Below, in pieces: positions 9,479 through 63,775 of a stretch of DNA of 64,000 bases. Source of the stretch: a virus (Duplodnaviria > Caudoviricetes). The stretch covers positions 64,001 to 128,000 of the IMG/VR virus record IMGVR_UViG_3300035498_000371. One strand, 5' to 3'. The notes beneath the pieces are model-generated. The model worked only from the letters and a program-made list of their open reading frames with translations. It was not told the DNA's origin and ran no database searches. Every line of letters begins with the position of its first letter. The stretch's first letter is position 1. Made by a program: the position numbers and the translations under genes.

Positions 9479-10309
9479 TTACATTTTGAATGCATAATCC
9501 ATAATGATATTATTTACATGCTTCTCAAGATTTACTGTAATCTTATCGCCGTATCTTGAAGTCATAAGAAGAGTGTTCTCGTTAAGCAATGTAACAGAAT
9601 CATAGATACCATCAAAAGTTTCTACAATCTTAGTTACATTTGCAGATTCTCTCTGAAGCCTATTAATTACATCCATAGCTGCGCCTTCAGTAATCTTGAT
9701 GATAGTACCAGGATCATTTTCAGGAACAACGATGCTATTCTCTGATAATACTTTGCCATCAAGAGCAGCCTCAGATACAATCCTATCTGTGTATGCAACT
9801 TTATGTGAAGGATAAATAACACTATCCCATGTAATAATCTTAATACCCTTAACATAAGCTTTACCGTTTACATTTTCGATAGTACCAAGAGCTCTTAATG
9901 AGAATGCAGGTAAGCAACCTTCTCTAAGATCCTGATCGAAGTACTCTCCATAGTTATTATTCGTTCCCTTAAACTGAGCTTTAACCAGATTACCCTCTGT
10001 CCATACTTTTAAGAATCTAACGCATACTAATTTAGGATCTATCGTTTGCTGACGAACCAAATCATCAGATAACGGATGTCCGTACTCGCCACAGAACTGT
10101 TTAGCGTTTATAAGCTCTTTCATTCTATCGCCATTAATCTCTGGTTCAAGATCTGCTTTAGCATAAATACGTCTGTTTCTGTTTTCTTTATCCATATCCT
10201 GAAGCGTTCCTTCAGCTATAACACGTTTAGTGGAACCATCTGTAATTATGGTATCCTCAACGGTTGTAGCGCCTTCAAGAATGATGTTTCCAATCACCTT
10301 ATTAGACAT
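9479..10309 (-). CDS. Prohead core protein protease (T4 gp21/phiKZ gp175-like)
   Basis: NRNRRIY, GEYGHP (catalytic His), FSLRALG (catalytic Ser), ITWDSVIYPS; start moved to ATG 10309 behind AAGGAGG SD. Confidence 0.9.
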   Translation of the reverse strand: MSNKVIGNIILEGATTVEDTIITDGSTKRVIAEGTLQDMDKENRNRRIYAKADLEPEINGDRMKELINAKQFCGEYGHPLSDDLVRQQTIDPKLVCVRFLKVWTEGNLVKAQFKGTNNNYGEYFDQDLREGCLPAFSLRALGTIENVNGKAYVKGIKIITWDSVIYPSHKVAYTDRIVSEAALDGKVLSENSIVVPENDPGTIIKITEGAAMDVINRLQRESANVTKIVETFDGIYDSVTLLNENTLLMTSRYGDKITVNLEKHVNNIIMDYAFKM

Positions 10310-10338
10310 ATTCTCAACCTCCTTAAAATAAAATTTCT

Positions 10339-10387
10339 TACTCTTATGTTTCCCAGAGTATAGCCCAAATCTGTTAACTTTATAGTA
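10339..10387. promoter_or_regulatory. Back-to-back divergent late-type promoters (protease on minus, head operon on plus)
   Basis: Minus AACA-TAAGAG-TA (10339-10350); plus AACT-TTATAG-TA (10376-10387). Confidence 0.65.
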
Positions 10388-10414
10388 ATAATTTAATAAA
10401 GGAGGCTTAGAATC

Positions 10415-14263: not shown

Positions 14264-16114
14264 ATGCCAGTTGTAGGTGAAAGACGAAATCCTAACATGG
14301 GAAATATGTCTAAAGATCCCATGTATGCATATGCTGCAGCCTTCATGGAAACACAGCAGAATATGCTTCGTGAAAATCGCATCGACTATGGTTTCGAGCC
14401 AGTAAGAGCATTGGCTATTCAGGGAAACCGTGATGCACTCAGAAAATTCTATGTTGAAAATTCGGTGGTAGGCGACCGAAACAGTATGACAACAGAGGAG
14501 TACGACGATCAGATCAAAATGATGGACGAGGCGTTCATCAATGATATGCAGGCCGTACAGGAAAATGGTAGTATTGGTATGGCTCAGTACAACCCGATGG
14601 TTGGTCTGTCTCTGCCTATGCATAAATACCTTATGTTAAACTGTGTATTCGCACAGGCTATTCCTCGTTTCGTTGCTAAGTCTAGTTCTTGGACTGAGAC
14701 AATGGAAACAAGATTCATGGTTACACCGGATGGAAAGAAGATTGATATCGCCAATCAGCAGAATCAGATCTATCCAGCATGGAAGAGCGCTAACAAACCT
14801 ATCGAGGTTGCTATCGCATTGCCAGAGGTTCAGACAGTGGATATTCTTAATGAGTATTTCCACGTAGATCGTAAGAGTCACAATCTTTCTGTTGCTACTC
14901 ATATCTCTGCAGTTGCAATTGAGGATGCTTATAAGAAAGGTGATACTGTTCTTACAATCGCCGATGGCGTTATTACAGAATCAGTTGCTACTGAGGATGG
15001 TACAGGACTTGTATGGAAACCTTGGTTAGCAGAGTTCACACCAGGATATGGTGAGTATAACCGTGTTATTACAAAACCAGTTGATATTGTTGTTACAGGT
15101 GCAGATGGAGAGGAAACAGCGTTCCATGATTCTATCTTTGCTATGCAGCAGGATAATATGTTTGAGATCAACTCAGGCGGTAAGATCAAAGCTGTTAAGA
15201 TGTATGCTCGTTATGACGCATCTTCAAGAATGCTTAAGACTCCGAGAGTAGAGTGGAGCGAGAGAACTACATTCGTTCAGATTCCTGAGAATGATGGTAT
15301 TACTGTACCTATCACTCCTGAGGAAGTAAAAGACATCGGCGCTAACTATGGTATCAATCAGGTTACCAAGTACATGAGCATGATCAAAGACATTCTTGAG
15401 AATGTTAAAGATGATGATATCCACAATGAGCTTGATGAGAGCTTTATGAGATTGGATGACGATCACAGATTGGCTAAGACAATCGATTTCGCTCCTCGTC
15501 AGGGATACTACAGTGATCACCTTGAGTGGTTACAGAGGACATTCATGAATACACTCGATCAGTATATTACTGGTCTGCTTACAGTTCTTCGTGATCCTAA
15601 TATGCAGATCTGCATTGTTGGTCGTCCAGGACTTATCAGACAGATTACACCTACAGAGTACAGCTACGCTACTCCTTCAAGTGTTGGTCCTATCGAGCTT
15701 GACTTTAAGAAGACTGTTGTTACTTCAGATAAGAGAGTATACAACTTCATCTCTTCTGATAAGTTATTCGGAAATGATAATCTCATTGTTCTCTTGATTC
15801 CTAAGAACACTGATCGTATCGTATATCGTTTATATGATTATCAGATGTACATCAGCAATGAGATCAGAGATGCTGAGAATCCGGCGCTTCCTGCATTAAC
15901 TGCATTCCAGCGTTACAAATTCTTCTCATATCAGCCTGTTCAGGGTCGTCTGTTCGTTGCTAATCCTAGCGGTCTTCGTGAGCATCTGCCTAACGTTGAT
16001 CCTATTGGACCTCAGTATACAAACAATGATCTTGGTAGCGTTTACACTCATTATGATGAGGCTACAGGCAAGAATGTTGCAACAGCAAATGAGCTTCCTG
16101 AAGTAGACGGTTAA
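14264..16114 (+). CDS. Probable major capsid protein precursor
   Basis: 616 aa; own late promoter, strong SD and terminator; high-expression codon bias; helical N-terminal propeptide ending near VQE-NG; sits in protease/scaffold cluster. Confidence 0.75.
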   Translation: MPVVGERRNPNMGNMSKDPMYAYAAAFMETQQNMLRENRIDYGFEPVRALAIQGNRDALRKFYVENSVVGDRNSMTTEEYDDQIKMMDEAFINDMQAVQENGSIGMAQYNPMVGLSLPMHKYLMLNCVFAQAIPRFVAKSSSWTETMETRFMVTPDGKKIDIANQQNQIYPAWKSANKPIEVAIALPEVQTVDILNEYFHVDRKSHNLSVATHISAVAIEDAYKKGDTVLTIADGVITESVATEDGTGLVWKPWLAEFTPGYGEYNRVITKPVDIVVTGADGEETAFHDSIFAMQQDNMFEINSGGKIKAVKMYARYDASSRMLKTPRVEWSERTTFVQIPENDGITVPITPEEVKDIGANYGINQVTKYMSMIKDILENVKDDDIHNELDESFMRLDDDHRLAKTIDFAPRQGYYSDHLEWLQRTFMNTLDQYITGLLTVLRDPNMQICIVGRPGLIRQITPTEYSYATPSSVGPIELDFKKTVVTSDKRVYNFISSDKLFGNDNLIVLLIPKNTDRIVYRLYDYQMYISNEIRDAENPALPALTAFQRYKFFSYQPVQGRLFVANPSGLREHLPNVDPIGPQYTNNDLGSVYTHYDEATGKNVATANELPEVDG

Positions 16115-36836: not shown

Positions 36837-38048
36837 ATGATTGAATTGGAAGGTAAATATAATTCATGTAAAGTATTTACAGATGATTGCGATACTGCTA
36901 CGATAGGGCAGTTAACAGCATTATTAGATCAAGAAAGTTCTAAAGGAAGTAAGATAAGAATTATGCCAGATTGCCATGCTGGTAAAGGTTCTGTAATTGG
37001 AACAACTATGACGCTCGATAAGTATGTAATACCAAATATCGTTGGAGTAGATATAGGTTGCGGTATGCTCGCTGTTAAACTAAAGAACAAATCAATAGAT
37101 TTACCAGCATTGGATAGTGTAATCCATAAATATGTGCCAAGCGGTTTTGATATTCATGATGAACCAATTGGAGATTCTGATATTGATCAAATATATGCTC
37201 CAGTAAATACAGATAGGGCATATAGAAGTTTAGGAACTCTTGGAGGAGGTAATCATTTTATTGAGGTTGATAAAGACTCTGAAGGATTCTTATGGCTAGT
37301 TATTCATACAGGTTCACGCCATTTAGGTATAGAAGTATGTGATTATTATCAGAATCTTGCATATGAAAATCTCAAAGCTAAGGCTGCAGGTGGAACTTAT
37401 AAAGAGTTATCTGATAAGTTAATAGCTCAGTACAAATCTGAAGGAAGAGAGAAAGAACTCTCTAAAGCATTAGCTGGACTGAAATCAGAATACAAATCTA
37501 ATATAGATATTCCTCAGGCTCTTGCTTATCTTGAAGGTGATAGCATGGAAGCTTACATTCATGATATGAAGTTAGCTCAGGAGCACGCAAGTATTAACCG
37601 TGCTATTATTGCTAAGACTATATTGAAGAAGGCTAAGCTTAAAGAAATTGAACGTTTTGAAACTATTCATAATTATATTGATTGTAATAATATGATTCTT
37701 CGTAAAGGTTCAATATCAGCTCAGGATGAAGAAAGAGTGATAATACCAATGAATATGAGAGATGGTTCTCTTATATGTATAGGTAAAGGAAATCCTGATT
37801 GGAATTATTCGGCGCCTCATGGAGCCGGTAGATTAATGTCTCGTAATGCTGCAAGAGATTCTATTTCAATGAGCGACTTCAAAGAGAGTATGAAAGGCAT
37901 TTATTCTACAAGTGTTAATAAGAGCACAATCGATGAAAGTCCTCAGGCTTATAAACCAATGGATGAAATTATTTCCAATATGGGAGACGCGGTAGAGATT
38001 GTTGATATTATAAAACCAATCTATAACTTTAAGGCTGGAGAAGAATAG
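36837..38048 (+). CDS. rtcB: RtcB-family RNA ligase
   Basis: MPDCHAGKG, GVDIGCGM, GTLGGGNHFIE, HTGSR, HNY, RKG, HGAGR, DESPQAYK. Confidence 0.95.
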   Translation: MIELEGKYNSCKVFTDDCDTATIGQLTALLDQESSKGSKIRIMPDCHAGKGSVIGTTMTLDKYVIPNIVGVDIGCGMLAVKLKNKSIDLPALDSVIHKYVPSGFDIHDEPIGDSDIDQIYAPVNTDRAYRSLGTLGGGNHFIEVDKDSEGFLWLVIHTGSRHLGIEVCDYYQNLAYENLKAKAAGGTYKELSDKLIAQYKSEGREKELSKALAGLKSEYKSNIDIPQALAYLEGDSMEAYIHDMKLAQEHASINRAIIAKTILKKAKLKEIERFETIHNYIDCNNMILRKGSISAQDEERVIIPMNMRDGSLICIGKGNPDWNYSAPHGAGRLMSRNAARDSISMSDFKESMKGIYSTSVNKSTIDESPQAYKPMDEIISNMGDAVEIVDIIKPIYNFKAGEE

Positions 38049-38062
38049 AGAAGGAGGTTAGT

Positions 38063-38659
38063 ATGATAGTTCAAATAAGTTCAGGTCAAGGGCCTGCAGA
38101 ATGCGAACTCGCTGTAGTAAAGTTATATAATGCTTTATCAAAAGAGTTCAATGATTTATCTTTAGTACAAAAACATGAAGCCCGCACCAAAGGTTGCTGC
38201 ACTTCAATATTGTTTACTACAGATAATGATCTTTCATTTCTTGAAGGAACGGTTCAATGGATTTGTCAAAGTCCATTTAAACCGCACCACAAACGCAAGA
38301 ATTGGTACGTTGACGTTAGCATAATACCGCAAATGGAAGAAATCTCAACAGAGCAAGATATCCGCTTTGAAAGATTTCACTGTGGCGGCAATGGAGGTCA
38401 AAACGTTAATAAAGTAGAAACAGGAGTAAGACTTACTCATATTCCAACAGGAATTGTAGTAACGTCTACTTCAGAGAGAAGTCAATTACAAAACCGTAAA
38501 GATGCATTAAACAAATTAAATGCAATATTAGCAGCTAAGGCTGTTGATAATAAAGCTAAGCAAACAAATGATGCTTGGAGAGAACACACTAAAATAGTTC
38601 GTGGAAATCCAGTAAGGGTTTACAAAGGCGAAGAATTTAAACTAATGGAGGTAAAGTAA
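38063..38659 (+). CDS. prfH: Peptide chain release factor H-like protein (PrfH)
   Basis: ISSGQGPAEC N-terminus, GTVQWICQSP..HHKRKNW, GGNGGQNVNKVETGVR, ERSQLQN; adjacent to rtcB. Confidence 0.88.
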   Translation: MIVQISSGQGPAECELAVVKLYNALSKEFNDLSLVQKHEARTKGCCTSILFTTDNDLSFLEGTVQWICQSPFKPHHKRKNWYVDVSIIPQMEEISTEQDIRFERFHCGGNGGQNVNKVETGVRLTHIPTGIVVTSTSERSQLQNRKDALNKLNAILAAKAVDNKAKQTNDAWREHTKIVRGNPVRVYKGEEFKLMEVK

Positions 38660-42966: not shown

Positions 42967-45900
42967 ATGTCTACTAAGAAATATAAATGCCCATATTGCA
43001 ATGCTAGATTAGAGAGATCGGCATTAATTAAGCATGTAGATAAATTCCATCAGGAGTTAATTCCTGATGGGTTTACCTCAACTAGAATTGTTTATAATTC
43101 AGTTAATAAGACTGATGGTGGCAAATGTAGAGTATGTGGTAAACCTACAGAGTGGAGAGAAGATACCGGTAGATATAACGTTCTTTGTAAAGATCCAAAA
43201 TGCAAGCAGAAGATGAGGGATGATTATAAAAAGAATATGCTTCGTGTTAGAGGTACTTATAATATTCTTAATGATCCAGAGCAACAGGAAAAGATGCTTG
43301 CTAATAGATCCATCTCAGGAGAATATCAATTCTCAGATGGTGGTAAGGTAGGTTATACGGGAACTTACGAAAAGAAATGCTTAGAGTTCATGGATGTTGT
43401 TATGCAGATTAAATCAGACGATATTATGTCTCCAGGACCATCCATGGAATACACTTATAATGGCGCTAAGCATATTTATATTCCAGACTTCTATTATGTA
43501 CCATATAATTTAATTATCGAAGTTAAGGATGGTGGAGATAATCCTAATACTAAATTATCTCCAGGAATGAAGTCTTCAAGAGAACGTACTATAGAGAAAG
43601 AGCGTATGATTACTGATAAAGGAATCTATAATTATATCAGGTTAACCAATAACAACTTTCAGCAATTAATAGAAGTATTTATGGATATTAAATATGCTCT
43701 TATTGAAGGTGATCCTAGAAAGACTGTTAAGGTTAATGAATCATCAGATATTGATTTTTTTGAAGAATATGAATCTTTATCTGAGAATGGAATTATTACC
43801 ACTAAAGATTTGGAATATAATTTAGATCAATGGAAAATTGGTGGTAAGAATATTCTATTTATTACAGGCTTATCTGGTTCTGGTAAATCTACTAAGGCTG
43901 CTAAGTTGGCTAAAGAGAATAATGCTATTAATATAGAGATTGATCTCTTTGAGCATAACGATATTGTATTCGATAAGAATACAAATAATGATGATGGTAA
44001 TATTATTGTAAAAGAATACTTTGAAAAGAAATATGGGGGTGCTAGAAAGATGCCTCAGGGCGATCCTAAGTTGCCGCATATGCTTTATGATTTCATTAAA
44101 TATTGTATAAATTATGCTTCAAAGCATAAGGATCGTTTATTCATCATGGAAGGCATTCAGTTAGCAGATTTAGAGATGGCAGAAGAGCTTAAGAATTATC
44201 CTGTTATTATAGTAAATACCAGTATTATAAAATCAATGTATAGGGCAGCTAAGCGTGAAGGTATTAAGGATTATTTTAATTCTTTTAAATCATTCTCTGA
44301 TTTCTTAGGTTGGTTCAAATGGTATTTGCAGATGGATAAAAACAATAAGAAGTTTGCTAAAGATTTGAAAGAATCTACGTTTAATGAATCAACAACTCTT
44401 AAGAACTGTAAAAGATTAAATAATTATGGCGGTAATTTATATTTTATATCTCAAGAAGAATTAAACGGGAAAATATTATCTCCAAGAATACCGGATAATT
44501 ATTTTACAAAAAATAATTATGAAGATAACACTATCAAAAGAGTATGCTTTGCTCCATCTATAGATAAATGCTTAATGGGTTTATCTCAGAATCTTAAAGG
44601 AGAAGAACTTTATGTATATGAACCAGATGGGGAATATGAAATTTACAAACCAGATAAAAATCTTGTTCCCGATTCATCAATAACAGGAGAGTTATGGATA
44701 TTGAAACCTGTTAAATTGAAGAAGCTTGCCAAGATCAAAGTAATAGGTGATGCTGGAGAAGATGGAATACCTTTCTATTATGGCGATAATAAAGCTGAGT
44801 TATATAAATGGAATTATAAAATAATAGATGAATCTACGATTCCTGAAAAATGTAAGAAGTGCGGAGGAGATATCAAGGTTTATCTTAGAGGAGAACCAGT
44901 ATATCTTTGCTCCGATTGCGGGGAATATTATGGCACGGTTCCATTTAAAGAAGACGCTATATTAAAGTCTAAGAATGAACCGTTCTTTTTCTATCATCTA
45001 TTACCAAAAGGCGCTAGCATAACTAATGGTATTACAAGTTTGGAATATCAATATAATCATAATATGAATGATTTCCTGAAGAACTCCAATAAATACAGAA
45101 CCAGATTATGCGGCGGTTGGAATATTTACCCTGGCAGAAATCCAAACTCTTTATCTTCTGAAGAAATACATGAGGGTATAAATCAATTCAGGCATTCAAA
45201 TGGTGGTTGTAATAGAATTTATTTATTCAGATATGCCCCATATGAAAATCTTGGTTCTCAAATGAAGAAAATATTGGCGGGCAAAGATATTTATAGAGTT
45301 GATGTGAGTAAGCTTTTAAAAGATGGTATAATAATCGATATTGATTATGGTTATATAGATTCTAATACAGATAATGATAAATTAAGCGAGGATTGGTATA
45401 GAAATATATCCTATGATGATTATTTCAAAAACTACACAGAAGATAATCCTGATCGCCTGTTATTCAGTTATATGAACCATATAAGCGTTACTCCTAAGAA
45501 TGGGGTTATTCCTAAGAAATATTTAACGAAAATTGATAAGTCTAATTCATTATCTTTACAAGAAACTGATACTATATTAGAGCAATCAAACCCAGATAAT
45601 CTTGTTTTTATTGATATTAATAGAGACAAGAACACTACAGTTAAATATCTTAAGCAGAGGAATAGCAAGTATACAAATTATCTTGATAATTACATTGGAG
45701 AAATCATTGTAGATCAGGATAAAGATAAGCTTGCAGGCCAAGTATTTATTGGTAAGAAAGGAACGAAGGATGAAGGTTTCATTACAGGATTAGAAGTCTA
45801 TAAGCCTTATAAGAATAAAGGTTTAGGAAGTAAGTTGTTAGATGATGCTGTTAAGAAATATAATGGTATTGATCTTACAGTTTATAAGGATAATGATATA

Positions 45901-46257
45901 GCTATAAGAATGTATAAGAAATATGGATTCGTTATATTAGGTCCTGGAAATACCAAGAATAATGATTATTACATGAAGCTTAAGAGTAAGGTTTCTAAAT
46001 CAGACAAGAAATCAATCAAAGAATCTTCTGGAATGACTGCGGATCAGGTAGATAGATTTTATACCCTATTAAAGCAAAGATTAGACGAAGATGAGGAATT
46101 TGAGAAGTATGAATCTGCATTAACGCCATATAACAAAGATACAGATGGACCAAATGAGTTTCCTAAAGAAAAGTCTAACTTTAGTGCAGATGATCTTAGT
46201 AATACAGAGATCGATGATTTAAGTTTTGATGATTTAGACGACGATGAAGAGGACTAA
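42967..46257 (+). CDS. Polyvalent multidomain protein: C2H2/Zn finger, PD-(D/E)xK nuclease-like, P-loop kinase, two ART-like/unknown modules, Zn ribbon, GNAT acetyltransferase, acidic tail
   Basis: CPYC...H...H; YIPDF..NLIIEVKD; ITGLSGSGKST; RVCFAPSIDKCL; CKKC..CSDC; LEVYKPYKNKGLGSKLL...NDIAIRMYKKYGF; late motif GACA-TCAAAG-TA at 42927. Confidence 0.8.
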   Translation: MSTKKYKCPYCNARLERSALIKHVDKFHQELIPDGFTSTRIVYNSVNKTDGGKCRVCGKPTEWREDTGRYNVLCKDPKCKQKMRDDYKKNMLRVRGTYNILNDPEQQEKMLANRSISGEYQFSDGGKVGYTGTYEKKCLEFMDVVMQIKSDDIMSPGPSMEYTYNGAKHIYIPDFYYVPYNLIIEVKDGGDNPNTKLSPGMKSSRERTIEKERMITDKGIYNYIRLTNNNFQQLIEVFMDIKYALIEGDPRKTVKVNESSDIDFFEEYESLSENGIITTKDLEYNLDQWKIGGKNILFITGLSGSGKSTKAAKLAKENNAINIEIDLFEHNDIVFDKNTNNDDGNIIVKEYFEKKYGGARKMPQGDPKLPHMLYDFIKYCINYASKHKDRLFIMEGIQLADLEMAEELKNYPVIIVNTSIIKSMYRAAKREGIKDYFNSFKSFSDFLGWFKWYLQMDKNNKKFAKDLKESTFNESTTLKNCKRLNNYGGNLYFISQEELNGKILSPRIPDNYFTKNNYEDNTIKRVCFAPSIDKCLMGLSQNLKGEELYVYEPDGEYEIYKPDKNLVPDSSITGELWILKPVKLKKLAKIKVIGDAGEDGIPFYYGDNKAELYKWNYKIIDESTIPEKCKKCGGDIKVYLRGEPVYLCSDCGEYYGTVPFKEDAILKSKNEPFFFYHLLPKGASITNGITSLEYQYNHNMNDFLKNSNKYRTRLCGGWNIYPGRNPNSLSSEEIHEGINQFRHSNGGCNRIYLFRYAPYENLGSQMKKILAGKDIYRVDVSKLLKDGIIIDIDYGYIDSNTDNDKLSEDWYRNISYDDYFKNYTEDNPDRLLFSYMNHISVTPKNGVIPKKYLTKIDKSNSLSLQETDTILEQSNPDNLVFIDINRDKNTTVKYLKQRNSKYTNYLDNYIGEIIVDQDKDKLAGQVFIGKKGTKDEGFITGLEVYKPYKNKGLGSKLLDDAVKKYNGIDLTVYKDNDIAIRMYKKYGFVILGPGNTKNNDYYMKLKSKVSKSDKKSIKESSGMTADQVDRFYTLLKQRLDEDEEFEKYESALTPYNKDTDGPNEFPKEKSNFSADDLSNTEIDDLSFDDLDDDEED

Positions 46258-51942: not shown

Positions 51943-52812
51943 ATGAAGCGTTATTTATTTTTGCTTTCATTATGCGTTCTTTTAGCAGGATGTGGAAAGC
52001 AACAGGAAATCACAAACGAGGATTACTACACTGAACTTGTAACAACAGAGAGTGAAACAACGACAGAAGAAATTACTACCGAAGATGAGACAGAAACAGA
52101 AGAAGATGGATGCAGTGAATCAGTAGAATCTAAAGATGAGTATGCTTATCTGGATGATAATTACGATTCTGAAGGTAATTATATTCCTGAAGGATATGCG
52201 ATGCTTGATGTAGAAGAAATTCTACAGAATCCAGAGTTACCTACAGGATGCGAATCTGTAGCTTTAACAGCTTTACTAAAATATTATGGATTCACAGATT
52301 TGGATAAGACTTACATAGCGGACAATTATCTTATCTATAGTTCTACAGGAGATTGTAAAGATGGATTTATTGGAGATCCTCATACAACTAAAGGAGCTGG
52401 ATGCTTCTCTAATGTAATGAGACAGGTTGCTGATAATTATTTATATGATCAGAACGCTAATCTTGCTGCATATGATTTATCTGGAGCTACGATAAATGAG
52501 TTACTTCAATCATTAGATTATGGAGATCCTGTATTGATATGGACAACTATTAATATGGTAGAACCATCTATAGATAAGAGCGATCTCATGGTGGGCGATT
52601 ATGAATTTTATCATAACGAGCACTGTGTTGTTCTTATGGGATATAATCTTGATGGCGAAAAGCTTTATATCATGGACCCACTTGAAGGTATTGTAGAGAG
52701 AGATTTAGACGATTTCTATGATATTTATAAGAAGATAGGAAAATATGCAGTAGTTATCTGGCAGGGTAAACCTGTACCATCATCTCAGAATGGATTCGGA
52801 TTGGAAGAATAG
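51943..52812 (+). CDS. Lipoprotein with C39-like cysteine peptidase domain
   Basis: Lipobox LLAG-C; T/E-rich linker; QNPELPTGCESVAL, HCVVLMGY, DP. Confidence 0.85.
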   Translation: MKRYLFLLSLCVLLAGCGKQQEITNEDYYTELVTTESETTTEEITTEDETETEEDGCSESVESKDEYAYLDDNYDSEGNYIPEGYAMLDVEEILQNPELPTGCESVALTALLKYYGFTDLDKTYIADNYLIYSSTGDCKDGFIGDPHTTKGAGCFSNVMRQVADNYLYDQNANLAAYDLSGATINELLQSLDYGDPVLIWTTINMVEPSIDKSDLMVGDYEFYHNEHCVVLMGYNLDGEKLYIMDPLEGIVERDLDDFYDIYKKIGKYAVVIWQGKPVPSSQNGFGLEE

Positions 52813-56752: not shown

Positions 56753-57157
56753 ATGATAATGAAAGGAAAATATGATTTTCTAAGTAATTTCTACCCATGT
56801 ACGTTACAGTACATGGGTATTACTTATCAAAATTCTGAAGCAGCATTTCAGGCACAAAAATGTCCTGAAAGAGCAATTGAATTTGCTAATCTTGATCCTA
56901 GTAGAGCTAAGCGTCTAGGAAGAAGAGTAAAGCTAAGGTCTGATTGGGAAGAAGTTAAAATACCAATTATGTATCAGATATTAGAGGCTAAGTTTTCCAA
57001 TCCTGAATTGATGAATAGATTACTTCAGGTTGAAGGAGAAATAGTTGAAGAAACTACGTGGGGCGATACATTCTGGGGAGTTTGTAAAAGTAAAGGAAAT
57101 AATATGCTTGGAAAACTTCTTATGGATATTCGTGATAGAAATAAAACAATGTGCTAG
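56753..57157 (+). CDS. NADAR (YbiA-like) protein
   Basis: FLSNFYP, SEAAFQAQK, AKRLGR..LRSDW, KF..L..L, DTFWG, GNNMLGKLLM. Confidence 0.9.
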   Translation: MIMKGKYDFLSNFYPCTLQYMGITYQNSEAAFQAQKCPERAIEFANLDPSRAKRLGRRVKLRSDWEEVKIPIMYQILEAKFSNPELMNRLLQVEGEIVEETTWGDTFWGVCKSKGNNMLGKLLMDIRDRNKTMC

Positions 57158-57958: not shown

Positions 57959-58532
57959 AATAATAGCTATAAGTCAAAGAGATAAAGATAGATATGGTTG
58001 CCCAAATTGTGGATGCGACGTTTCAATATGCAATAATTTTTATGGTATGGGAGCATTACCTGTAACATGCGAAGAATGCCATACAAAATATGTAATATTG
58101 GCTGATGATTTAGATAAATCTCCGATTGGATTTGGAACTGCTGATGGGAAAACTTATTACCCAGAGGTTGTAGAGCATCCTCGTAAGGGAATTCCATGGC
58201 ATCCATATGAATGGCCAGACCCCAGACCAGACGGCGAAGGAGAATTCTGTAGACCTAGAGGTATAGGATATGACTTGGCATGTTTTGTCAAATCAAAGAA
58301 GGCTGGAGAAAGACTGCTTGATATGGTAAAAGAAGTTCTTGGAAATGAGGAACCAAAGAGTTGGCTAGATTACAGGCCAAGAGAACCAAAATGGATTCAG
58401 TTTAAGTTTCAAAAAGAAGAGTTTGATCTTGAGAAACTGGAGAAACAGCTTACTGATAATAATCGTATAGTAACAATAGGTATTCTTAATGATTGTGCTA
58501 TTAAGGAGGTGAGTAATAATGAAGAGAATTAG
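57951..58532 (+). CDS. Zn-finger hypothetical protein
   Basis: CPNCG...CEEC. Confidence 0.7.
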   Translation: MSKIIAISQRDKDRYGCPNCGCDVSICNNFYGMGALPVTCEECHTKYVILADDLDKSPIGFGTADGKTYYPEVVEHPRKGIPWHPYEWPDPRPDGEGEFCRPRGIGYDLACFVKSKKAGERLLDMVKEVLGNEEPKSWLDYRPREPKWIQFKFQKEEFDLEKLEKQLTDNNRIVTIGILNDCAIKEVSNNEEN

Positions 58533-59094
58533 AGCTATTGTTGCTGGAGGTAGAACGTTTAATAATTATCGAAAGATGTGCGAAATCTTAGATTCATATC
58601 TTAATCCTGAAGAAGATTATATAACGATAATCTCTGGTATGGCTAAAGGAGCAGATATCTTAGGAGAGCAGTATGCCATAGAGCATAATATAAATCTAAT
58701 TCAATGCCCAGCATTATGGGAGAAGAATGGTAAATATGCTGGGTATATGCGCAATAAGCAGATGGCAGATATTGCTACAGACGAACCAGATTGTGAAGCA
58801 ATATTATTTGCTTTCTGGAATGGTAAATCTAGAGGAACTAAAAACATGATAGATCTTGCCAATAAATACGGTATGAGGGTAATAATTACAAACTATATTG
58901 ATGATTCTCAATCTCTTAAGCATTTTGAACCTAAGAATCATAAGTACACATATGATTTTGTACTGTTTAAGATTGCTGAAGGAAGATTTAGCTATGGTAA
59001 GATCAAGAGCAGAAATGAAGATGGCACTTACGACATAGAGACGTATAACTATCTATTCACTAGTGTACCAGAAGAAGATTTATTTCCAGTGTAA
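58519..59094 (+). CDS. SLOG (YspA/DUF2493-like) protein
   Basis: IVAGGRTF, IISGMAKGAD, AGYMRNKQMA, AFWNGKSRGTKNMI. Confidence 0.85.
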   Translation: MKRIRAIVAGGRTFNNYRKMCEILDSYLNPEEDYITIISGMAKGADILGEQYAIEHNINLIQCPALWEKNGKYAGYMRNKQMADIATDEPDCEAILFAFWNGKSRGTKNMIDLANKYGMRVIITNYIDDSQSLKHFEPKNHKYTYDFVLFKIAEGRFSYGKIKSRNEDGTYDIETYNYLFTSVPEEDLFPV

Positions 59095-59108: not shown

Positions 59109-59396
59109 ATGAAAGAAGTAACAGTTCATTTAGAAGAGCATCTTGTAAAGACTTTTAAAGTTGAAGTAGATACTGATGATTCCGATGAAGCTATGGATAT
59201 AGCAGAACAAGCAGTATTAAGAGAATATGATGATGGTAATATCGTGCTCACAGCAGATGATTACAATAATACTACATTGATTCATGCAGAGATAGATGGA
59301 TTTGATACTGAATGGAGAGAAACATATCGGGTTAAAGATGATTCTTATACCAAAGAACAGCTTAAAGAGATGTGCAAGATACGAGAAGATAAATAA
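59109..59396 (+). CDS. DpnD/PcfM-like protein
   Basis: VHLEEHLVKTFKVEV...A...V..EYDDGNIVLTADD. Confidence 0.6.
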   Translation: MKEVTVHLEEHLVKTFKVEVDTDDSDEAMDIAEQAVLREYDDGNIVLTADDYNNTTLIHAEIDGFDTEWRETYRVKDDSYTKEQLKEMCKIREDK

Positions 59397-59498
59397 AAAA
59401 TATATACGGCTAGGCCATTGTGCCTAGCCAATTTATTATTTTTTTGCTTAATCTTACTCCTCGGACAATAAAATAATTAATGAAAGGAGGCTAAGTAT

Positions 59499-62288
59499 AT
59501 GGCTTTAGAAGATTTTAAGAACAATAACTCTCCATCAGATAAGAGAAAGTTGTTGGTTAGAATAGCAACTAATGTACTAAATATATATGGAATAGAGTAT
59601 AATATTGCCAGTGGAGATAGAGAAGACTTCATAGATGGTAAAGAGAATAAAAACTTTAATTCCATTTGTCTTTGCTTTAGTCTTGGTAAGAACGTTGGTA
59701 AGGCTTGTAAAGTGGTTAATAGAGAAATTAAGCAGTATGGTGGAAAGTTTAAGCATGATGAGCACGGTATTGGAATTCTCTATCTTAAAGATGATATCGG
59801 GGCAAATGAATTAGATCTACCAGATGTACAAGATGATATTCATTATATATTGGATAATACTCCTGATGATAGAATCTTTCTTACAACTGACTGGCATATC
59901 TTTGGTCATTACTACGGTAAAGGTAGAAATCCTGTCAATATACAGGAAATTGTTTCATGGTGTAAGAAGAATATTAAAGATGAAGATGTTCTTATAAACT
60001 GTGGAGATTTGACTCATAGATATGCTAATAAAGAGCATCAAGAAGAAGCAGCAAAGATTTATAGAAGTCTTCCTGGGATAAAAGTTCTTATTCTTGGTAA
60101 TCATGATATTGCTACCGGGGAAGATTTCTACACTAATTGCGGATTTGATTTTATATTCAAAAGATTGGTTCATAACGGCATAGTTTATAGCCATAGACCA
60201 GAGAATATCGAAGCCGATCCAGAATTATGGTTTAATATTCATGGGCATAAACACGATGTTCAGACTTATAACGTTACTAGTGGAGAAAATAGTGTAAACG
60301 TTTACCCAGCATTCTTCAATAATAAACCAACAACGCTGGATTATGTATTAAATCATAGAGATAAATTGACTAAAGATAACGTACAGGATTTCTGGTCTAA
60401 TTATACAGAGAGTGCATTAAATGAAACGAAGAGATCTGAACTTCCAGATTCTTCATTTGGTATTCCTGAAGATCGAAAGTTTCCATTAGATACAGAGCAG
60501 CATGTAAAATCTGCAATAAAATTATTTGGTCATGCTGAAGAATCCAAGAAGAAACAACTTGCACAAAGAATATCTACAGCCGCAAAAAGATATAATGTAA
60601 AGATCTCTGATACATGCCAGATTAATAAGTACTTAACAGAATCTGTTGAGCATATTATTCCTAAAGATATTGATACTCTTATCTTTGATATGGGTAAAGT
60701 ATTGGTTGGAGATACGACTAAAGATATGCTTACAGCATCTGATATGATTCCTAATGATGAAGTTGAAGGAATTTATAAATCTGTCGGTAAAATTCTCTTC
60801 ACAGATGAATCAGAGAATATGACTAAAGATGAAGCCATGCAGGAGTTCTACAATAAAGCTCCAGAGAAGTATAAGAAATATACTTCTACAATATTCCAGT
60901 GTATTGCTAATGGATTGAAGATTTATTCTTATACTTACGAGCTTCTTGATAAGCTTAAAGGAATGGGTTATAGAATCTATTACTTATCAAACTGGGAAAG
61001 ATGGACTTATGAGATAGAAGAAGATATATTTAAACCATTGCTTGATAAGTTCGATGGAGGATTATTCTCATTTTCTGAAGGCTGTAAAAAACCAGATGCA
61101 GAATTCTATATAAGATTGCTTGATAAGTATTCTTTACAAGCAGAGAGATGCGCTTTCTTTGATGATAAAGCAGAAAATCTTGCTGGAGCAGAATCTGTTG
61201 GTATAAAAGCCGTTCCATTTAATTATGAGAATACTTATAAGATGCTGGTAAGCGATATATCTGTAACTACAGAAGCTGCAGATGTGGCTTACGATAAGAA
61301 CACCATTCTTATCAATAAAGATAATGAATTAACTACGGTGGATATTAAGAATATTCCTCATTGGCACGTATGTGAATCAAGATACCCTGGAGAGATGAAT
61401 GAAGATTGTTATTATAAATCTCTTATTGAAGCAATAGAGAATTGCGGAATAATGGATAATATAGAAGATTCTAAACAAGCTTATGTGTTCATATGCAATG
61501 GTTTAAGACAGGATTGCGATGATTGTTTTCATCCAGTATGTGTTGGTATCATTAACGTAGATTCTAATAAACAATATGAATGGGTTATTCAGTATCCTGT
61601 AACGGTTGAGGGTGGTGTATACAAGAACGTTGTTTCTGCATCTGAATGGGCTATGGCTTCGATGAATCCTATAAAGCCAATTGCTAAACCATTCATATTA
61701 AAAATATCTCCTCAAGATGAGACTATAAGAACCAAGCAGTATTTATTCTCCCCAGATGTAATTGCTGATAAATATTTAGCAATATCTGAAGATGGTAAAT
61801 TATCTGTATTAAATCATAAAGACGTTGAGAATTTATATATTGAAGCCGAGTATAGATTCGTCGGTGATTCTCGTAGAATTAATAAGATTCGTGAGGCTTT
61901 AAAGAGTGGTAAGATTGTAGATAATACATTCTTCTATACTGCTCTTACTGGAAAACCATTACTTACAGAGGATCAGATTGATTTTGATTCTAATTTTGTT
62001 AAGATCGACTTCAGCAGAATGAGGAACAATATCTTATCCAATCTTGCTACAAATGAGTCTAAGTTTAATACTCTAATTGACAGTAATACTAATGGAGTAC
62101 TAATTACTGAAGGTTACAAATATGGATCTCTTAATGATAAATATGGGTTAAGGATTATGTATTCATTGGAAGGTTATTATGTAGAATCTTCTGTTCTTGG
62201 ATATAAGAGCCCATATTTTAATTCTGTTGATGAGATAACAATAGAAGTTGTAGAAACAATGCTAAATAAGAAACTGGAGGTGATGTAA
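59499..62288 (+). CDS. Polyvalent multidomain protein: calcineurin-like metallophosphoesterase, small LPDSSFG module, HAD phosphatase, C-terminal unknown domain
   Basis: TDWH, GD, GNHD, SH, HGHKH; RSELPDSSFGIPEDRKFPL; FDMGKVL, LSN, KKPD, FFDDKAEN; late motif GACA-ATAAAA-TA (59464-59475). Confidence 0.85.
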   Translation: MALEDFKNNNSPSDKRKLLVRIATNVLNIYGIEYNIASGDREDFIDGKENKNFNSICLCFSLGKNVGKACKVVNREIKQYGGKFKHDEHGIGILYLKDDIGANELDLPDVQDDIHYILDNTPDDRIFLTTDWHIFGHYYGKGRNPVNIQEIVSWCKKNIKDEDVLINCGDLTHRYANKEHQEEAAKIYRSLPGIKVLILGNHDIATGEDFYTNCGFDFIFKRLVHNGIVYSHRPENIEADPELWFNIHGHKHDVQTYNVTSGENSVNVYPAFFNNKPTTLDYVLNHRDKLTKDNVQDFWSNYTESALNETKRSELPDSSFGIPEDRKFPLDTEQHVKSAIKLFGHAEESKKKQLAQRISTAAKRYNVKISDTCQINKYLTESVEHIIPKDIDTLIFDMGKVLVGDTTKDMLTASDMIPNDEVEGIYKSVGKILFTDESENMTKDEAMQEFYNKAPEKYKKYTSTIFQCIANGLKIYSYTYELLDKLKGMGYRIYYLSNWERWTYEIEEDIFKPLLDKFDGGLFSFSEGCKKPDAEFYIRLLDKYSLQAERCAFFDDKAENLAGAESVGIKAVPFNYENTYKMLVSDISVTTEAADVAYDKNTILINKDNELTTVDIKNIPHWHVCESRYPGEMNEDCYYKSLIEAIENCGIMDNIEDSKQAYVFICNGLRQDCDDCFHPVCVGIINVDSNKQYEWVIQYPVTVEGGVYKNVVSASEWAMASMNPIKPIAKPFILKISPQDETIRTKQYLFSPDVIADKYLAISEDGKLSVLNHKDVENLYIEAEYRFVGDSRRINKIREALKSGKIVDNTFFYTALTGKPLLTEDQIDFDSNFVKIDFSRMRNNILSNLATNESKFNTLIDSNTNGVLITEGYKYGSLNDKYGLRIMYSLEGYYVESSVLGYKSPYFNSVDEITIEVVETMLNKKLEVM

Positions 62289-63775
62289 TGGATAAGAATA
62301 TTCAAGCAATGATAGAATCATTTAAAGAGTCTAATCCATCATCTTCTAAAGATATTAAATTTGTATTTGAAGGATATATTTGCCCTTACTTTACAATGGA
62401 TGAAGTTGCTCAACTTGAGGGCTATTATTCTGATAATGTAAACAAAGAGTATAGAGCTCTATATGAGCATATCGCTTGTCATGATACAAACTTTGGTAAA
62501 TCATGGGCTTCTAAAGTTGTAGAATTACAGAATCAGCTTAAAGTTGTTACAGAGCCAGAGCATATTGATCAGATTAAGCAGGAGCTTATAGATCTTGGTT
62601 GGAATCCTGAAATTGAGTATACTGCGGAGAATCAGATTAAAGCCAAGAAGAGATATGAAAATATATTAAACGAGAGGTACAATAGGTTTAATATTGTGGA
62701 TTGTACTAATATAAATATTTCTGATGTATTGGAAGAATCAAATGAATATGGAATTCTATATCCAATACATATTGTCTTGGTTAAAGGAGATCATCTTATA
62801 TCCAACGTTATTACTAAAGTAACAAATGGGGATTTCTCTCATTCTGGTTTGGCGTTGGATAATGATCTTAATAAGATTTACAGCTTTAACTTTGATAACA
62901 AATTCAATACTGGCGGTGGATTCTCTTTAGAGTCTATAAAAGAATATCCTAAAAATAATAGGCTTGCTGTTTACACAGTATTCGTTACTAAGCAGGCTTA
63001 CGACAAGGTATCAGAAAATCTTCAAAACTTCATGAATAATATAAAGAAGACTGGATATTCTATAGTAAATCTTGTTACGTTTCCATTTAAGAATATCAAG
63101 ATCAATATGAGTGACAATATGATTTGCTCTCAGTTTGTTGATTATATTCTTAATATAGCAAACGTTAATATAACAAAGGATGATGCTTCTAAGGTTTCTC
63201 CTAACGGATTATACTTTGCTATAAAATCAAATCCTAAAGCATATAAAGTCTTTGACGGTGAAGTAAAAGACTTTGATGCTAAGAAAATAAATAAGACTGT
63301 TAAGAAGATTTCTAAAACAGCTTCCCCAGCTAACGAAATACAGCAGTTGGAGCAAGCAATATTTGAAGCCAGAAAGATTCCAGTCGAAATTAATGCAGAT
63401 GGTGACGTATTACTCACAAATCCGTTTCCTGACTACTCTGCTGAATATTTCGCTTCTCATAAATTACTGCTTAATTATGAGAAGACTGGAAATATTGAAG
63501 GGATGAAATACGAGCTTGCTAGGCTCTATTATATGAATTATATTATAGAGAAGAAATTATATCATAATAAGAATCTTAAGAATAAGCAGGAGAACATCAA
63601 GACCAGAGCTAGAATTCTTAATGATTTCAATAAATATCTTAAATACGTTCTTTCTAAGGATAAGAATTTTAATTTCTCTGAGTATTATGAGGGTTCACCT
63701 TTCTATGCCCATACAATAGAAATTAAATCATCAACCATAGGCAAGATCAAAGATATTATAAGTTATATATTATAA
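62288..63775 (+). CDS. Putative virion protein with internal permuted NlpC/P60 (YiiX-like) domain
   Basis: GDFSHSGLAL (His before Cys), GYS, MICSQFV. Confidence 0.75.
   Translation: MDKNIQAMIESFKESNPSSSKDIKFVFEGYICPYFTMDEVAQLEGYYSDNVNKEYRALYEHIACHDTNFGKSWASKVVELQNQLKVVTEPEHIDQIKQELIDLGWNPEIEYTAENQIKAKKRYENILNERYNRFNIVDCTNINISDVLEESNEYGILYPIHIVLVKGDHLISNVITKVTNGDFSHSGLALDNDLNKIYSFNFDNKFNTGGGFSLESIKEYPKNNRLAVYTVFVTKQAYDKVSENLQNFMNNIKKTGYSIVNLVTFPFKNIKINMSDNMICSQFVDYILNIANVNITKDDASKVSPNGLYFAIKSNPKAYKVFDGEVKDFDAKKINKTVKKISKTASPANEIQQLEQAIFEARKIPVEINADGDVLLTNPFPDYSAEYFASHKLLLNYEKTGNIEGMKYELARLYYMNYIIEKKLYHNKNLKNKQENIKTRARILNDFNKYLKYVLSKDKNFNFSEYYEGSPFYAHTIEIKSSTIGKIKDIISYIL

Follow-up and report, generated by a model that had tools for sequence, protein, structure and literature searches.

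A conserved late gene pair encodes modular phage proteins with Glu-ended joints that may be head-protease sites

Introduction

Do the short glutamate-ended strings between the unrelated enzymes of two adjacent genes of an uncultured jumbo phage mark places where the protein chains are cut? The genes are ORF1 (59499..62288, + strand, 929 aa) and ORF2 (62288..63775, + strand, 495 aa) of the window, the 64,000-nucleotide stretch analysed here (positions 64,001 to 128,000 of virus record IMGVR_UViG_3300035498_000371). The best explanation is that the two genes form a conserved late pair, are co-transcribed and encode modular polyvalent proteins. The short Glu-ended joints look like cutting sites of the phage's head protease, which makes it probable that the enzymes are loaded into the capsid and separated by cutting. 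We put the full reading, in which both proteins are loaded into the capsid and processed by the head protease, at slightly better than even.

Organization of the locus

A hairpin with a T-rich tail (Table 1) is the terminator-like end of the gene at 59109..59396 and marks ORF1 and ORF2 as a separate unit. Ahead of ORF1, the GACA motif at 59464 equals the AR9 late promoter consensus, AACA-(6N)-TA/G (PMC5312081), with one mismatch. The AACA form has 29 matches in the genome, of which 26 are intergenic, and stands ahead of the capsid gene and of virion-protein genes; the GACA variant also precedes a 1096-aa polyprotein (42927) and a 4181-aa tape-measure-like gene. The motif is likewise found ahead of genes for a primase and for an RNA polymerase subunit, which counts against the full reading. 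One late-type promoter had been predicted before both genes, and the GACA-N6-TA motif is consistent with it. The start of ORF2 and the stop of ORF1 overlap by one base, and the pair is adjacent in five of five related genomes. The nearest neighbour genes (NADAR, SLOG and dNMP-kinase-like) are non-structural, a further point against the full reading. A late-type promoter would fit entry-stage enzymes only if these are packaged.

Table 1. Coordinates of the features in the window; arrows mark proposed cuts
Feature	Position	Strand	Residues	End	Remarks
Head maturation protease	9479..10312	-			phrog_207 5.3e-23, phrog_3014 7e-19
Major capsid protein	14264..16114	+			phrog_20655
Hairpin and T-rich tail	59408..59429	+			Stem of 8 pairs, 6 of them GC; present on both strands
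Late-promoter-like motif	59464..59477	+			GACA-N6-TA(AT), 22 nt upstream of ORF1 ATG
ORF1 N-module	59499..59810	+	1-104	GANE104↓L	
ORF1 phosphoesterase	59811..60425	+	105-309	YTE304↓S, LNE309↓T	Calcineurin-type metallophosphoesterase
ORF1 DUF6582	60426..60641	+	310-381	YLTE381↓S	
ORF1 HAD phosphatase	60642..61274	+	382-592	TTE592↓A	YihX/TIGR02247-like
ORF1 C1	61275..61646	+	593-716	SASE716↓W	Beta-rich
ORF1 C2	61647..62285	+	717-929		Family's constant C-terminal module
ORF2 leader	62288..62317	+	1-10	MIE10↓S	
ORF2 helical N domain	62318..62737	+	11-150	LEE150↓S	
ORF2 permuted NlpC/P60	62738..63337	+	151-350	ANE350↓I	YiiX-like
ORF2 spacer	63338..63367	+	351-360	IFE360↓A	Variable length in relatives
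ORF2 C domain	63368..63772	+	361-495		Constant, core is a three-helix bundle

Module composition of ORF1 and ORF2

Both proteins are built of modules in the order of Table 1, from N-module to C2 in ORF1 and from leader to C domain in ORF2. The N-module is without known family and had no Pfam match; it is seen again in relatives, at times internally. In relatives it ends in LKE↓S/D, and ORF1 has lost the LKE↓S of the family at this joint. ORF1 residues 118-302 match phrog_547 (E 4.2e-15), the phosphoesterase segment alone scores 38.3 bits with PF00149 (cut-off 21.5), and the metallophosphoesterase residues D131-x-H133, G169-D170, G200-N-H-D203 and G249-H-x-H252 can be read in it. The module between the enzymes, first noted for its LPDSSFG string, is DUF6582 (PF20223, 36.1 bits against a cut-off of 27.3). 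The HAD module, with nucleophile D397, matches PF00702 (E 2.2e-11); its best NCBIfam matches are TIGR02247 (1.5e-12) and PRK09456 (7e-11), and it exceeds the cut-off of TIGR01509 (41.9 against 29.4 bits). Like YihX glucose-1-phosphatase and the TIGR02247 HAD-IA proteins, it has the nucleophile Asp and, on a reading of the sequence, Gly at Asp+2, the position of the second Asp in DxDxT-type phosphatases. It differs from them in scoring far under the equivalog cut-offs (42 versus 295 bits) and in being fused within a 929-residue phage protein. The original prediction that the injected enzymes could heal RNA ends found no support, the HAD module being closest to these two phosphatase groups; degradation of nucleotide signals by the candidate ORF1 enzymes is possible. 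Structure modelling gave C1 a pLDDT of 80-90, with a linker at model residues 121-136 below 50, and structure comparison of C1 gave no clear match. C2 weakly resembles a permuted papain fold (Z 6.2), and an invariant Cys or His is absent among its relatives.

The MIE↓S leader of ORF2 is nearly invariant in relatives (I9, F12), and the helical N domain holds an invariant GWNPE. In the hydrolase domain, H185, D191 and C280 are invariant and the fold resembles YiiX (Z 14.3), 3kw0 (Z 13.4) and TseH (Z 11.7) over 142-149 residues; Foldseek also matched it to 3kw0 (E 8.2e-4), with which the strings fsH and iCSqFV align. Searched against Pfam, this segment gave just unrelated sub-threshold models at E<=1. 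It shares fold and His-before-Cys order with the permuted papain-like hydrolases YiiX, 3kw0 and TseH, but is embedded between two other phage-protein domains. For the C domain, structure search gave generic helical matches only. The phosphoesterase, HAD and permuted NlpC/P60 identities that had been proposed from the sequence thus hold.

The likeness to TseH, a type VI peptidoglycan-hydrolase effector, raises the doubtful alternative that both are virion proteins other than head cargo, ORF2 a cell-wall hydrolase of the tail or baseplate and ORF1 an accessory protein, cleaved or not. ORF2 would suit this as a single-copy core gene, present in five of five related genomes and with 331 homologues, and the tape-measure-like gene 8 kb downstream carries lysin domains. 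However, ORF1 and ORF2 matched no tail or baseplate family, the motifs in their leader and linkers are like those in the proteins of a cluster holding head-annotated genes (see below), and the cargo of relatives (kinases, GNAT, phosphatases) consists of cytoplasm-directed enzymes.

Module shuffling was seen in the comparison of homologues for inserted or missing modules that had been suggested: 120 homologues fall into 18 architectures. C2 matches comprise 95 clusters at E<=1e-3, in proteins of 103-2523 aa; of the 54 with E<=1e-10, 53 have the match at the C-terminus (table read by eye). Distant ORF2-type proteins of 595-1178 aa keep the C domain at the C-terminus, with GNAT, P-loop kinase and other modules inserted and joints of the form xxE↓S/A/G/T; P-loop kinase and NUDIX modules are swapped in by relatives. 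The two genes had been called independent instances of one system. That they belong with the punctuated, module-swapping protein at 42967..46257 is supported by the same joints, module shuffling and the same one-mismatch promoter variant. In a collection of 50,697 records, no isolated phage had more than single modules of ORF1 or ORF2.

Conservation of the Glu joints

The joint motif is hydrophobic-x-Glu↓small, with a hydrophobic P3 and a small P1'. All strings originally named as cleavage-site punctuation are present in the translations: YTE304↓S and LNE309↓T from nt 60402, LTE381↓S from 60633 and TTE592↓A from 61266 in ORF1, and VLEE150↓S from about 62726 and ANE350↓I and IFE360↓A within 63329-63370 in ORF2. 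ORF1 joints were counted in 82 dereplicated relatives; the motif is present in 16.7% of random 18-residue windows. We found the E309-type motif ahead of DUF6582 in 70 of 75 junction zones and the E381-type motif ahead of HAD in 56 of 63, while Asp, Lys, Gln and Asn decoys reached at most 8% at these junctions. The joint between HAD and C1 (TTEAA) is at background level (7/47), and that between C1 and C2 has Trp at P1'. The motif persists where DUF6582 is N-terminal after a leader of 6-7 residues.

In 108 relatives of ORF2, E150, E350 and E360 are the sole 3 of 11 conserved Glu columns with hydrophobic P3 and small P1'; over eight residue types, 56 columns are conserved, four fit the pattern, and three of the four are these. 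E150 is kept in 97%, with hydrophobic P3 in 96% and small P1' in 88%; E360 is kept in all, with Ala at P1' in 100 of the 108. The only internal segments of the ORF2 model of at least 20 residues with pLDDT below 50 are 133-154 and 351-379, and the three sites lie in or adjoin them. VFEG, which had been included among the sites, lies in a variable stretch and is not conserved. Judged from these alignments, five sites (E309, E381, E150, E350 and E360) are kept above chance. What had been observed is thus confirmed in part: in ORF1 for YTESALNET and LTESV and not for TTEAA, in ORF2 for the leader and three internal sites and not for VFEG.

Both best-kept ORF1 joints flank DUF6582 (115 contexts compared) and could therefore be ends of that mobile module. 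This favours a rather unlikely reading in which ORF1 and ORF2 are uncleaved cytoplasmic multidomain enzymes, possibly remodelling nucleotide pools or metabolites, for example as a nucleotidase of an AR9/PBS1-like phage, and the Glu-small strings are domain ends or a linker preference. In its favour, the HAD module scores with pyrimidine nucleotidase models (YjjG 1.9e-6, pyrimidine 5'-nucleotidase 1.8e-5), relatives carry the kinase and NUDIX modules, and the dNMP-kinase-like gene lies 5 kb upstream. Conserved joint motifs were also not in excess genome-wide, with 80 in 123 orthogroups against 75 for Asp and 81 for Lys decoys. However, the hydrophobic P3 lies in the linker upstream of DUF6582 and persists whichever of many unrelated modules or N-terminal leaders comes before it; ORF2, which has no DUF6582, has the motif exactly at or within disordered linkers; and the variable-length spacer between the invariant E350 and E360 is hard to read as a domain end. 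The late-type promoter, as noted above, also speaks against entry enzymes that are not packaged.

The candidate protease and its possible head substrates

The presumed cutter of the joints is a head maturation protease of the T4 gp21/phiKZ gp175 type (Table 1). Its ORF as listed reaches 10567, and homologues begin about 84 codons later, aligning from residue 85-91. The capsid protein shares no more than about 21-22% identity with those of the Staphylococcus jumbo phages, the closest relatives that have a name. Its first 100 residues hold three conserved hydrophobic-x-Glu↓Asn sites (E37, E65 and E100), P1' being Asn and not a small residue. In a cluster at 158-166 kb of the genome, the joint motif is conserved in the first 20-100 residues of the proteins; against PHROGs, these gave one virion structural protein family, one weak internal head protein family and three unmatched.

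That another protease cuts the joints, either the papain-like domain of ORF2 acting on both proteins or a host enzyme, we regard as very improbable. The Cys-His hydrolase of ORF2 is intact, with H185 and C280 invariant, ORF2 always lies beside an ORF1-type gene, and internal peptidase domains have been proposed to process polyvalent proteins (PMC5512222). However, two distant ORF2-type proteins, L023 and L025, keep joints without the hydrolase domain, and the same motif occurs in the N-terminal regions of the cluster with head-annotated genes. Cutting after Glu is not known as a rule for YiiX-like enzymes. Such cutting is the rule of gp21/gp175-type proteases (PMC10052503, PMC9026906).

Under head-protease processing, each of the two proteins would carry exchangeable enzyme modules on a constant C-terminal module, with flexible linkers between modules, each bearing the joint motif. 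Once the precursors were inside the prohead, the protease would cut after the joint glutamates, liberating the modules, with loss of the ORF2 leader and the 351-360 spacer. When the phage next infects a cell, the freed parts would exit the capsid along with the DNA, ahead of any phage gene expression; the C-terminal modules may serve in loading. Packaging, cleavage, ejection, this loading role and all substrates are what we infer, and the interpretation originally offered is partly supported.

Comparison with known systems

In the polyvalent proteins that Iyer, Burroughs, Anand, de Souza and Aravind (2017, PMC5512222) described from phages and conjugative elements, one polypeptide likewise holds several unrelated enzyme domains, with architectures differing among relatives, and DNA-coupled delivery with proteolytic processing was proposed there, as here. 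NADAR and YAcAr SLOG are domain types of that literature that correspond to stand-alone upstream genes here (PMC9503650). For processing, a zincin-like metallopeptidase or a C-terminally fused assemblin-like peptidase was proposed (PMC5512222), and neither was found in ORF1 or ORF2; the joints here instead carry a Glu motif fitting a separately encoded head protease, and what stays constant is a C-terminal module without known family. In PMC5512222, 'Calcineurin' and 'NlpC' are absent and 'HAD' occurs three times, the ordinary word 'had' included.

Cleavage after Glu within short motifs is shared by the head proteases of T4 and of giant phages, the SPN3US enzyme acting at A-x-E with Ser preferred at P1' (PMC10052503, PMC9026906); P3 here is mostly Leu, Ile or Val, as in T4, as opposed to Ala in SPN3US. 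phiKZ, 201phi2-1 and SPN3US likewise belong to the giant phages, carry split multisubunit RNA polymerases and encode a gp21-like protease cutting after Glu; their substrates have several redundant sites per propeptide, and many proteins are ejected (PMC10052503, PMC9026906). Among 14 mapped SPN3US cuts, 13 take off N-terminal propeptides, as do all 13 cuts known in its substrates, and none separates enzymes (PMC10052503), which counts against the internal cuts proposed here.

T4 Alt and IPI-III provide a precedent for loading enzymes and effectors into the prohead, trimming after Glu and ejection (PMC9026906). T4 cargo proteins, however, have one function each and only terminal propeptides, of 7-65 residues at the N-terminus (PMC9026906), whereas several enzymes per chain and internal cuts are proposed here; the invariant part is an N-terminal tag in T4 cargo and C-terminal here. 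The first 10 residues of IPIII are enough for capsid targeting (PMC9026906), and the ORF2 leader, which ends in I-E↓S, is also 10 residues long.

Conserved Glu-ending joints in two adjacent putative polyproteins

Two adjacent genes, ORF1 (N-module, phosphoesterase, DUF6582, HAD, C1 and C2) and ORF2 (leader, helical N domain, permuted NlpC/P60 domain, spacer and C domain), carry the motif hydrophobic-x-Glu/small, in which the slash marks a candidate cut after Glu, P3 is the hydrophobic residue, and P1' is the residue after the slash. The strings named in the original prediction were found in their places in both translations: YTE304/S, LNE309/T, LTE381/S, and TTE592/A in ORF1, and MIE10/S, VLEE150/S, ANE350/I, and IFE360/A in ORF2.

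For the ORF2 family, 120 listed homologues were dereplicated to 108. In these relatives, 11 Glu columns are conserved at 85% or more, of which only E150, E350, and E360 pair a hydrophobic P3 (96%, 80%, and 98%, respectively) with a small P1' (88%, 72%, and 96%). D285, which lies in the catalytic core, is the sole other column to fit among 56 conserved ones covering eight residue types. The spacer between E350 and E360 is variable in length, and the leader, M1 to E10, ends in a nearly invariant I-E/S-F.

For the ORF1 family, 82 representatives were scored over the 18 residues that precede the start of each module. The motif is present in 70 of 75 zones before DUF6582 and 56 of 63 before HAD; the corresponding counts are 7 of 47 for C1 and 11 of 78 for C2, while 16.7% of random 18-residue windows contain it. 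At the junctions of DUF6582 and HAD, decoys built on Asp, Lys, Gln, or Asn score no higher than 8%, and the C2 start is nearly always hydrophobic-x-Glu-Trp (61/69). At the phosphoesterase start the first zone was misplaced (5/76), and a wider zone was used instead, which holds the motif in 28 of 42 cases as compared to 31% of random windows, a modest signal. The LKE/S that the family has at the joint of N-module and phosphoesterase is replaced in this ORF1, where GANE104/L remains. A motif Glu falls within the first 14 residues in 15 of the 82 relatives, and no leader is conserved. DUF6582 retains the hydrophobic P3 in front of it after many unrelated modules, and also when it is N-terminal behind a leader of 6–7 residues.

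These counts indicate that two of the three ORF1 sites, the three ORF2 sites, and the ORF2 leader are real conserved features, whereas TTEAA and VFEG, two of the seven strings that had been proposed, are not conserved. The joint linkers are low in pLDDT in the ORF2 model and in the model of the ORF1 C-terminal region. The Glu-ending motif is therefore found at exposed, conserved positions, as in substrates of T4 gp21/phiKZ gp175-type head proteases. A genome-wide screen of 123 orthogroups from six genomes gave 80 conserved motif columns versus 75 for Asp and 81 for Lys decoys; as there is no overall excess, the argument depends on where the motifs lie and not on how many there are. ORF1 aligned poorly in this screen because its relatives differ in architecture.

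Features of the window and of the adjoining genome (window positions above 64,000 lie beyond the window end)
Feature	Window position	Genome position	Strand	Details
Head maturation protease	9479..10567		minus	phrog_207 (5.3e-23), phrog_3014 (7e-19)
Major head (capsid) protein	14264..16114		+	nearest named relatives in Staphylococcus jumbo phages, ~21–22% identity
RtcB RNA ligase, then a gene whose product has an RF-1-type peptidyl-tRNA hydrolase domain	36837..38659			RtcB: phrog_1075 (4.3e-135)
Predicted lipoprotein	51943..52812			LPAM_1 signal, N-terminal, 18.4 bits (just below the cut-off of 20); Peptidase_C39_2 (1.2e-26)
Stand-alone NADAR	56753..57157			PF08719 (5.7e-23)
Stand-alone YAcAr SLOG	58519..59094			PF10686 (7.5e-12)
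Terminator-like hairpin	59408–59429			upstream of ORF1
GACA-N6-TA	59464			22 nt before the ORF1 ATG
ORF1	59499..62288			929 aa
ORF2	62288..63775			495 aa
4181-codon ORF, tape-measure-like	71658..84203	135658..148203		phrog_1272, phrog_58; endolysin domains near the C-terminus (phrog_7, 1.5e-30)
Motif-bearing late gene cluster	94464..101995, 120764..121357	158464..165995, 184764..185357

Domains of ORF1 and ORF2

On sequence evidence, the ORF1 phosphoesterase is assigned to the calcineurin-like metallophosphoesterases (PF00149). Residues 118–302 match phrog_547 (4.2e-15), the segment scanned alone reaches 38.3 bits with PF00149 (gathering score 21.5), and the translation contains the metal-binding motifs DxH (131–133), GD (169–170), GNHD (200–203), and GHxH (249–252). 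DUF6582 (PF20223) scored 36.1 bits and, in a second scan, 41.4 bits (gathering score 27.3); no mention of this domain was found in the literature searched. The HAD module is placed by its profile matches in subfamily IA of the HAD superfamily (PF00702, E 2.2e-11, 45 bits, cut-off 26.4; TIGR01509, 41.9 bits, cut-off 29.4) and is closest to TIGR02247 and YihX-type glucose-1-phosphatase. Its nucleophile, D397, is present in motif I, and Gly takes the place of the second Asp of DxDxT. The N-module (1–104) and the C-terminal region (593–929) are without a family match in the Pfam scan.

It had been suggested that the ORF1 enzymes could heal RNA ends. This idea found no support, since the HAD module resembles YihX and has Gly at Asp+2. 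Elsewhere in the window, the RtcB gene and the gene for the protein with the RF-1-type domain possibly form a tRNA or ribosome rescue pair, which bears on the idea of RNA repair.

The ORF1 stop and the ORF2 start overlap by one base. In the AlphaFold2 model of ORF2 (built on 26 homologues; mean pLDDT 75.5), stretches of pLDDT below 50 at 133–154 and 351–379 separate three ordered parts. The permuted NlpC/P60 domain that had been read from the sequence is borne out by the fold of the middle part, which resembles YiiX (Z 14.3, rmsd 2.6 Å over 142 aligned residues), 3kw0 (Z 13.4), and TseH (Z 11.7), and by its conserved residues: H185, D191, and C280 are invariant among homologues, with His before Cys as in permuted, YiiX-like NlpC/P60 proteins. 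Foldseek also returned 3kw0 (E 8.2e-4), as did a profile search (hmmsearch) of PDB sequences (E 0.0024), in which the His and Cys strings are aligned. No Pfam or NCBIfam model of the permuted NlpC/P60 family matched the domain at E≤1 or E≤0.1, and the label of phrog_1128, which matches ORF2 at 3.8e-16, is unrelated to NlpC/P60. Judging from the fold alone, the domain might cut the cell wall at entry. A three-helix bundle forms the core of the C domain, and fold searches with the N and C domains gave generic helical matches only.

Module shuffling and constant C-terminal ends

The comparison of homologues for inserted or missing modules agreed with the original prediction. Scored over six modules, the 120 listed ORF1 homologues show 18 architectures, with order changed and modules absent, and some carry additional inserts (GNAT, DUF362, P-loop kinase, NUDIX, transglutaminase-like). 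In distant ORF2-type proteins (595–1178 aa) the C domain stays at the end, preceded by GNAT, kinase, and other modules at xxE/S, A, G, or T joints, and some of these proteins are without the hydrolase. In all five related genomes, the one gene with C2 sits immediately upstream of the one ORF2 homologue, and nine pairs of ORF1 and ORF2 matches lie on equal-sized contigs shorter than 10 kb, which we took, as a proxy, to be the same contig.

C2 (residues 717–929) was searched alone against 1.84 billion representatives. The 95 clusters found (54 at E≤1e-10) contain proteins of 103 to 2,523 residues, and by our reading of the table the match reaches the C-terminus in 53 of those 54; stand-alone forms of about 205–225 residues occur. 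A Foldseek search of the PDB with the ORF1 C-terminal model returned nothing at E≤1e-3, while VIA-align gave Z values of at most 6.2 with top rows mostly of the permuted papain kind (3kw0, Z 6.2; PLAAT4, Z 5.9; YiiX, Z 5.8), a weak likeness that concerns C2. Because these values are below 8 and the homologues share neither a conserved Cys nor a conserved His, we did not file C2 as a member of the permuted papain fold. Without such residues, C2 may be an inactivated duplicate of the hydrolase domain in the adjacent ORF2, whose fold it weakly resembles. BFVD returned two uncharacterised phage proteins for the ORF1 C-terminal model, and the ESM Atlas had no usable match for ORF2 361–495 or ORF1 717–929. 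Nine ORF1 and ORF2 segments have no paralogues in the same genome.

A bolder proposal, which we regard as rather unlikely, is that C2 and the three-helix domain of ORF2 serve an entire clade of uncultured AR9-like jumbo phages as adaptors dedicated to capsid loading. An enzyme fused upstream via a hydrophobic-x-Glu/small joint would ride into the prohead, where the head protease would free it before injection, and the chains of cargo could be as long as about 2,300 residues. Such C-terminal adaptors would have a polarity opposite to the N-terminal targeting tag of T4 and to MuF fusions, and would amount to a natural plug-and-play protein-delivery system. A predicted complex of C2 with the ORF2 C domain received a score of 0.00 and a mark of 0.32, values that speak neither for nor against an interaction.

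The phage and its probable late expression

The source record, of which the window spans bases 64,001–128,000, has 238,843 bp and an estimated completeness of 76%; GC content is about 33%. The window codes for pieces of split multisubunit RNA polymerases, the head maturation protease, the major head protein, GroEL, and RtcB, among others. Compared with isolated phages, the ORF1/ORF2 region has no DNA-level match (megablast), and tblastn found single modules only, with no close relative of either protein (the ORF2 middle domain in 4 records of Fusobacterium phages, ORF1 modules in 13 records). From the RNA polymerase and head genes, the distant capsid relatives, and the lack of an isolated DNA match, it follows that ORF1 and ORF2 belong to an uncultured AR9/phiKZ-like jumbo phage. 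The predicted lipoprotein in the window also contains an acidic Thr/Glu-rich linker.

A motif of the form AACA-N5-RTAAW (AACA-N6-TA) is intergenic in 26 of its 29 matches in this genome, which is 91% coding, and usually lies 17–100 nt before start codons, for example at window 14174, 7117 (minus strand), 28556, and 16191. It stands before the gene for the capsid protein and before genes for virion proteins, and matches the late promoter consensus described for AR9, AACA-(6N)-TA/G (PMC5312081). The GACA form, which stands before ORF1, also precedes a 1096-aa polyprotein (42927), the tape-measure-like gene, and genes for a primase and a subunit of RNA polymerase. Sigma-70-type promoters are not enriched (23 found, 29.4 expected). 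By analogy with AR9, the match to its consensus suggests that ORF1 and ORF2 are expressed late.

Possible link to the head maturation protease

The phage encodes a gp21/gp175-type head protease, as would be needed if ORF1 and ORF2 were its substrates. The annotated protease gene begins about 84 codons beyond all homologues in related loci, and by this comparison its true start is probably near 10312. The head proteases of T4, phiKZ, 201phi2-1, and SPN3US are described as cutting after Glu in short motifs, with Ser preferred at P1' in SPN3US (PMC10052503, PMC9026906).

Similar motifs occur elsewhere in the genome. The capsid protein has three conserved hydrophobic-x-Glu/Asn sites in its first 100 residues, and they end at the point from which it is homologous to other capsid proteins. 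Conserved motifs also cluster in the N-terminal 20–100 residues of proteins of the late gene cluster at genome 158–166 kb. Several of these start with MIF or MVF and have early hydrophobic-x-Glu/Ser, Ala, or Gly copies, like propeptides with multiple cuts. One gene of the cluster matches a virion structural protein family (phrog_23545, 6.7e-27), another weakly matches an internal head protein family (phrog_6807, 4.7e-4), and three are without a PHROGs match.

The most economical interpretation is that ORF1 and ORF2 are substrates of the head protease: after loading into the prohead, both precursors would be cut by the protease at their conserved joints and the pieces ejected. One difference from known head-protease substrates should be mentioned. 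In SPN3US, 13 of the 14 mapped cuts reported remove N-terminal propeptides, whereas the cuts in ORF1 and ORF2 would be internal and separate enzymes. In T4, the leaders have 7–65 residues, and IPIII is reported to need no more than its first 10 residues for targeting (PMC10052503, PMC9026906). ORF2 has a conserved leader of 10 residues ending in I-E/S; ORF1 has no conserved one. If ORF1 and ORF2 are not such substrates, they would be ordinary phage enzymes of several domains, joined by linkers that are conserved.

Relation to polyvalent proteins

Polyvalent proteins were described by Iyer et al. (2017) as single polypeptides of phages or conjugative elements with at least two disparate activities, whose architectures vary combinatorially among relatives, which are proposed to travel in the virion and enter the cell together with the DNA, and to be processed by an internal peptidase of the zincin-like MPTase or assemblin-like kind (PMC5512222). 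In these terms, ORF1 and ORF2 are polyvalent proteins by domain content and architecture: ORF1 joins a phosphoesterase, DUF6582, and HAD, ORF2 joins a cysteine hydrolase to two further domains, the phage context is clear, and the relatives vary combinatorially in architecture. Packaging in the virion is hinted at indirectly by the late promoter motif and the head-type motifs. However, Pfam, PHROGs, and NCBIfam scans found no zincin-like MPTase or assemblin-like domain in either protein, and the papain-like domain of ORF2 is of another kind than these peptidases; instead, both proteins have Glu-motif joints and constant C-terminal modules.

If the substrate interpretation is true, giant phages of this clade load ready-made enzyme kits into the capsid as single chains that the head protease separates, which joins polyvalent effector proteins with Glu-specific head maturation. 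A joint rule linking the two was not stated in the literature searched, including the available text of PMC5512222. It would provide a simple sequence rule to find injected effectors in uncultured phages and specify candidate cut sites, and the C-terminal modules might serve as a means of bringing foreign proteins into capsids.

It is also observed that the stand-alone NADAR and YAcAr SLOG genes lie just upstream of ORF1; both domain types have been placed in virion-packaged or polyvalent phage proteins (PMC9503650).
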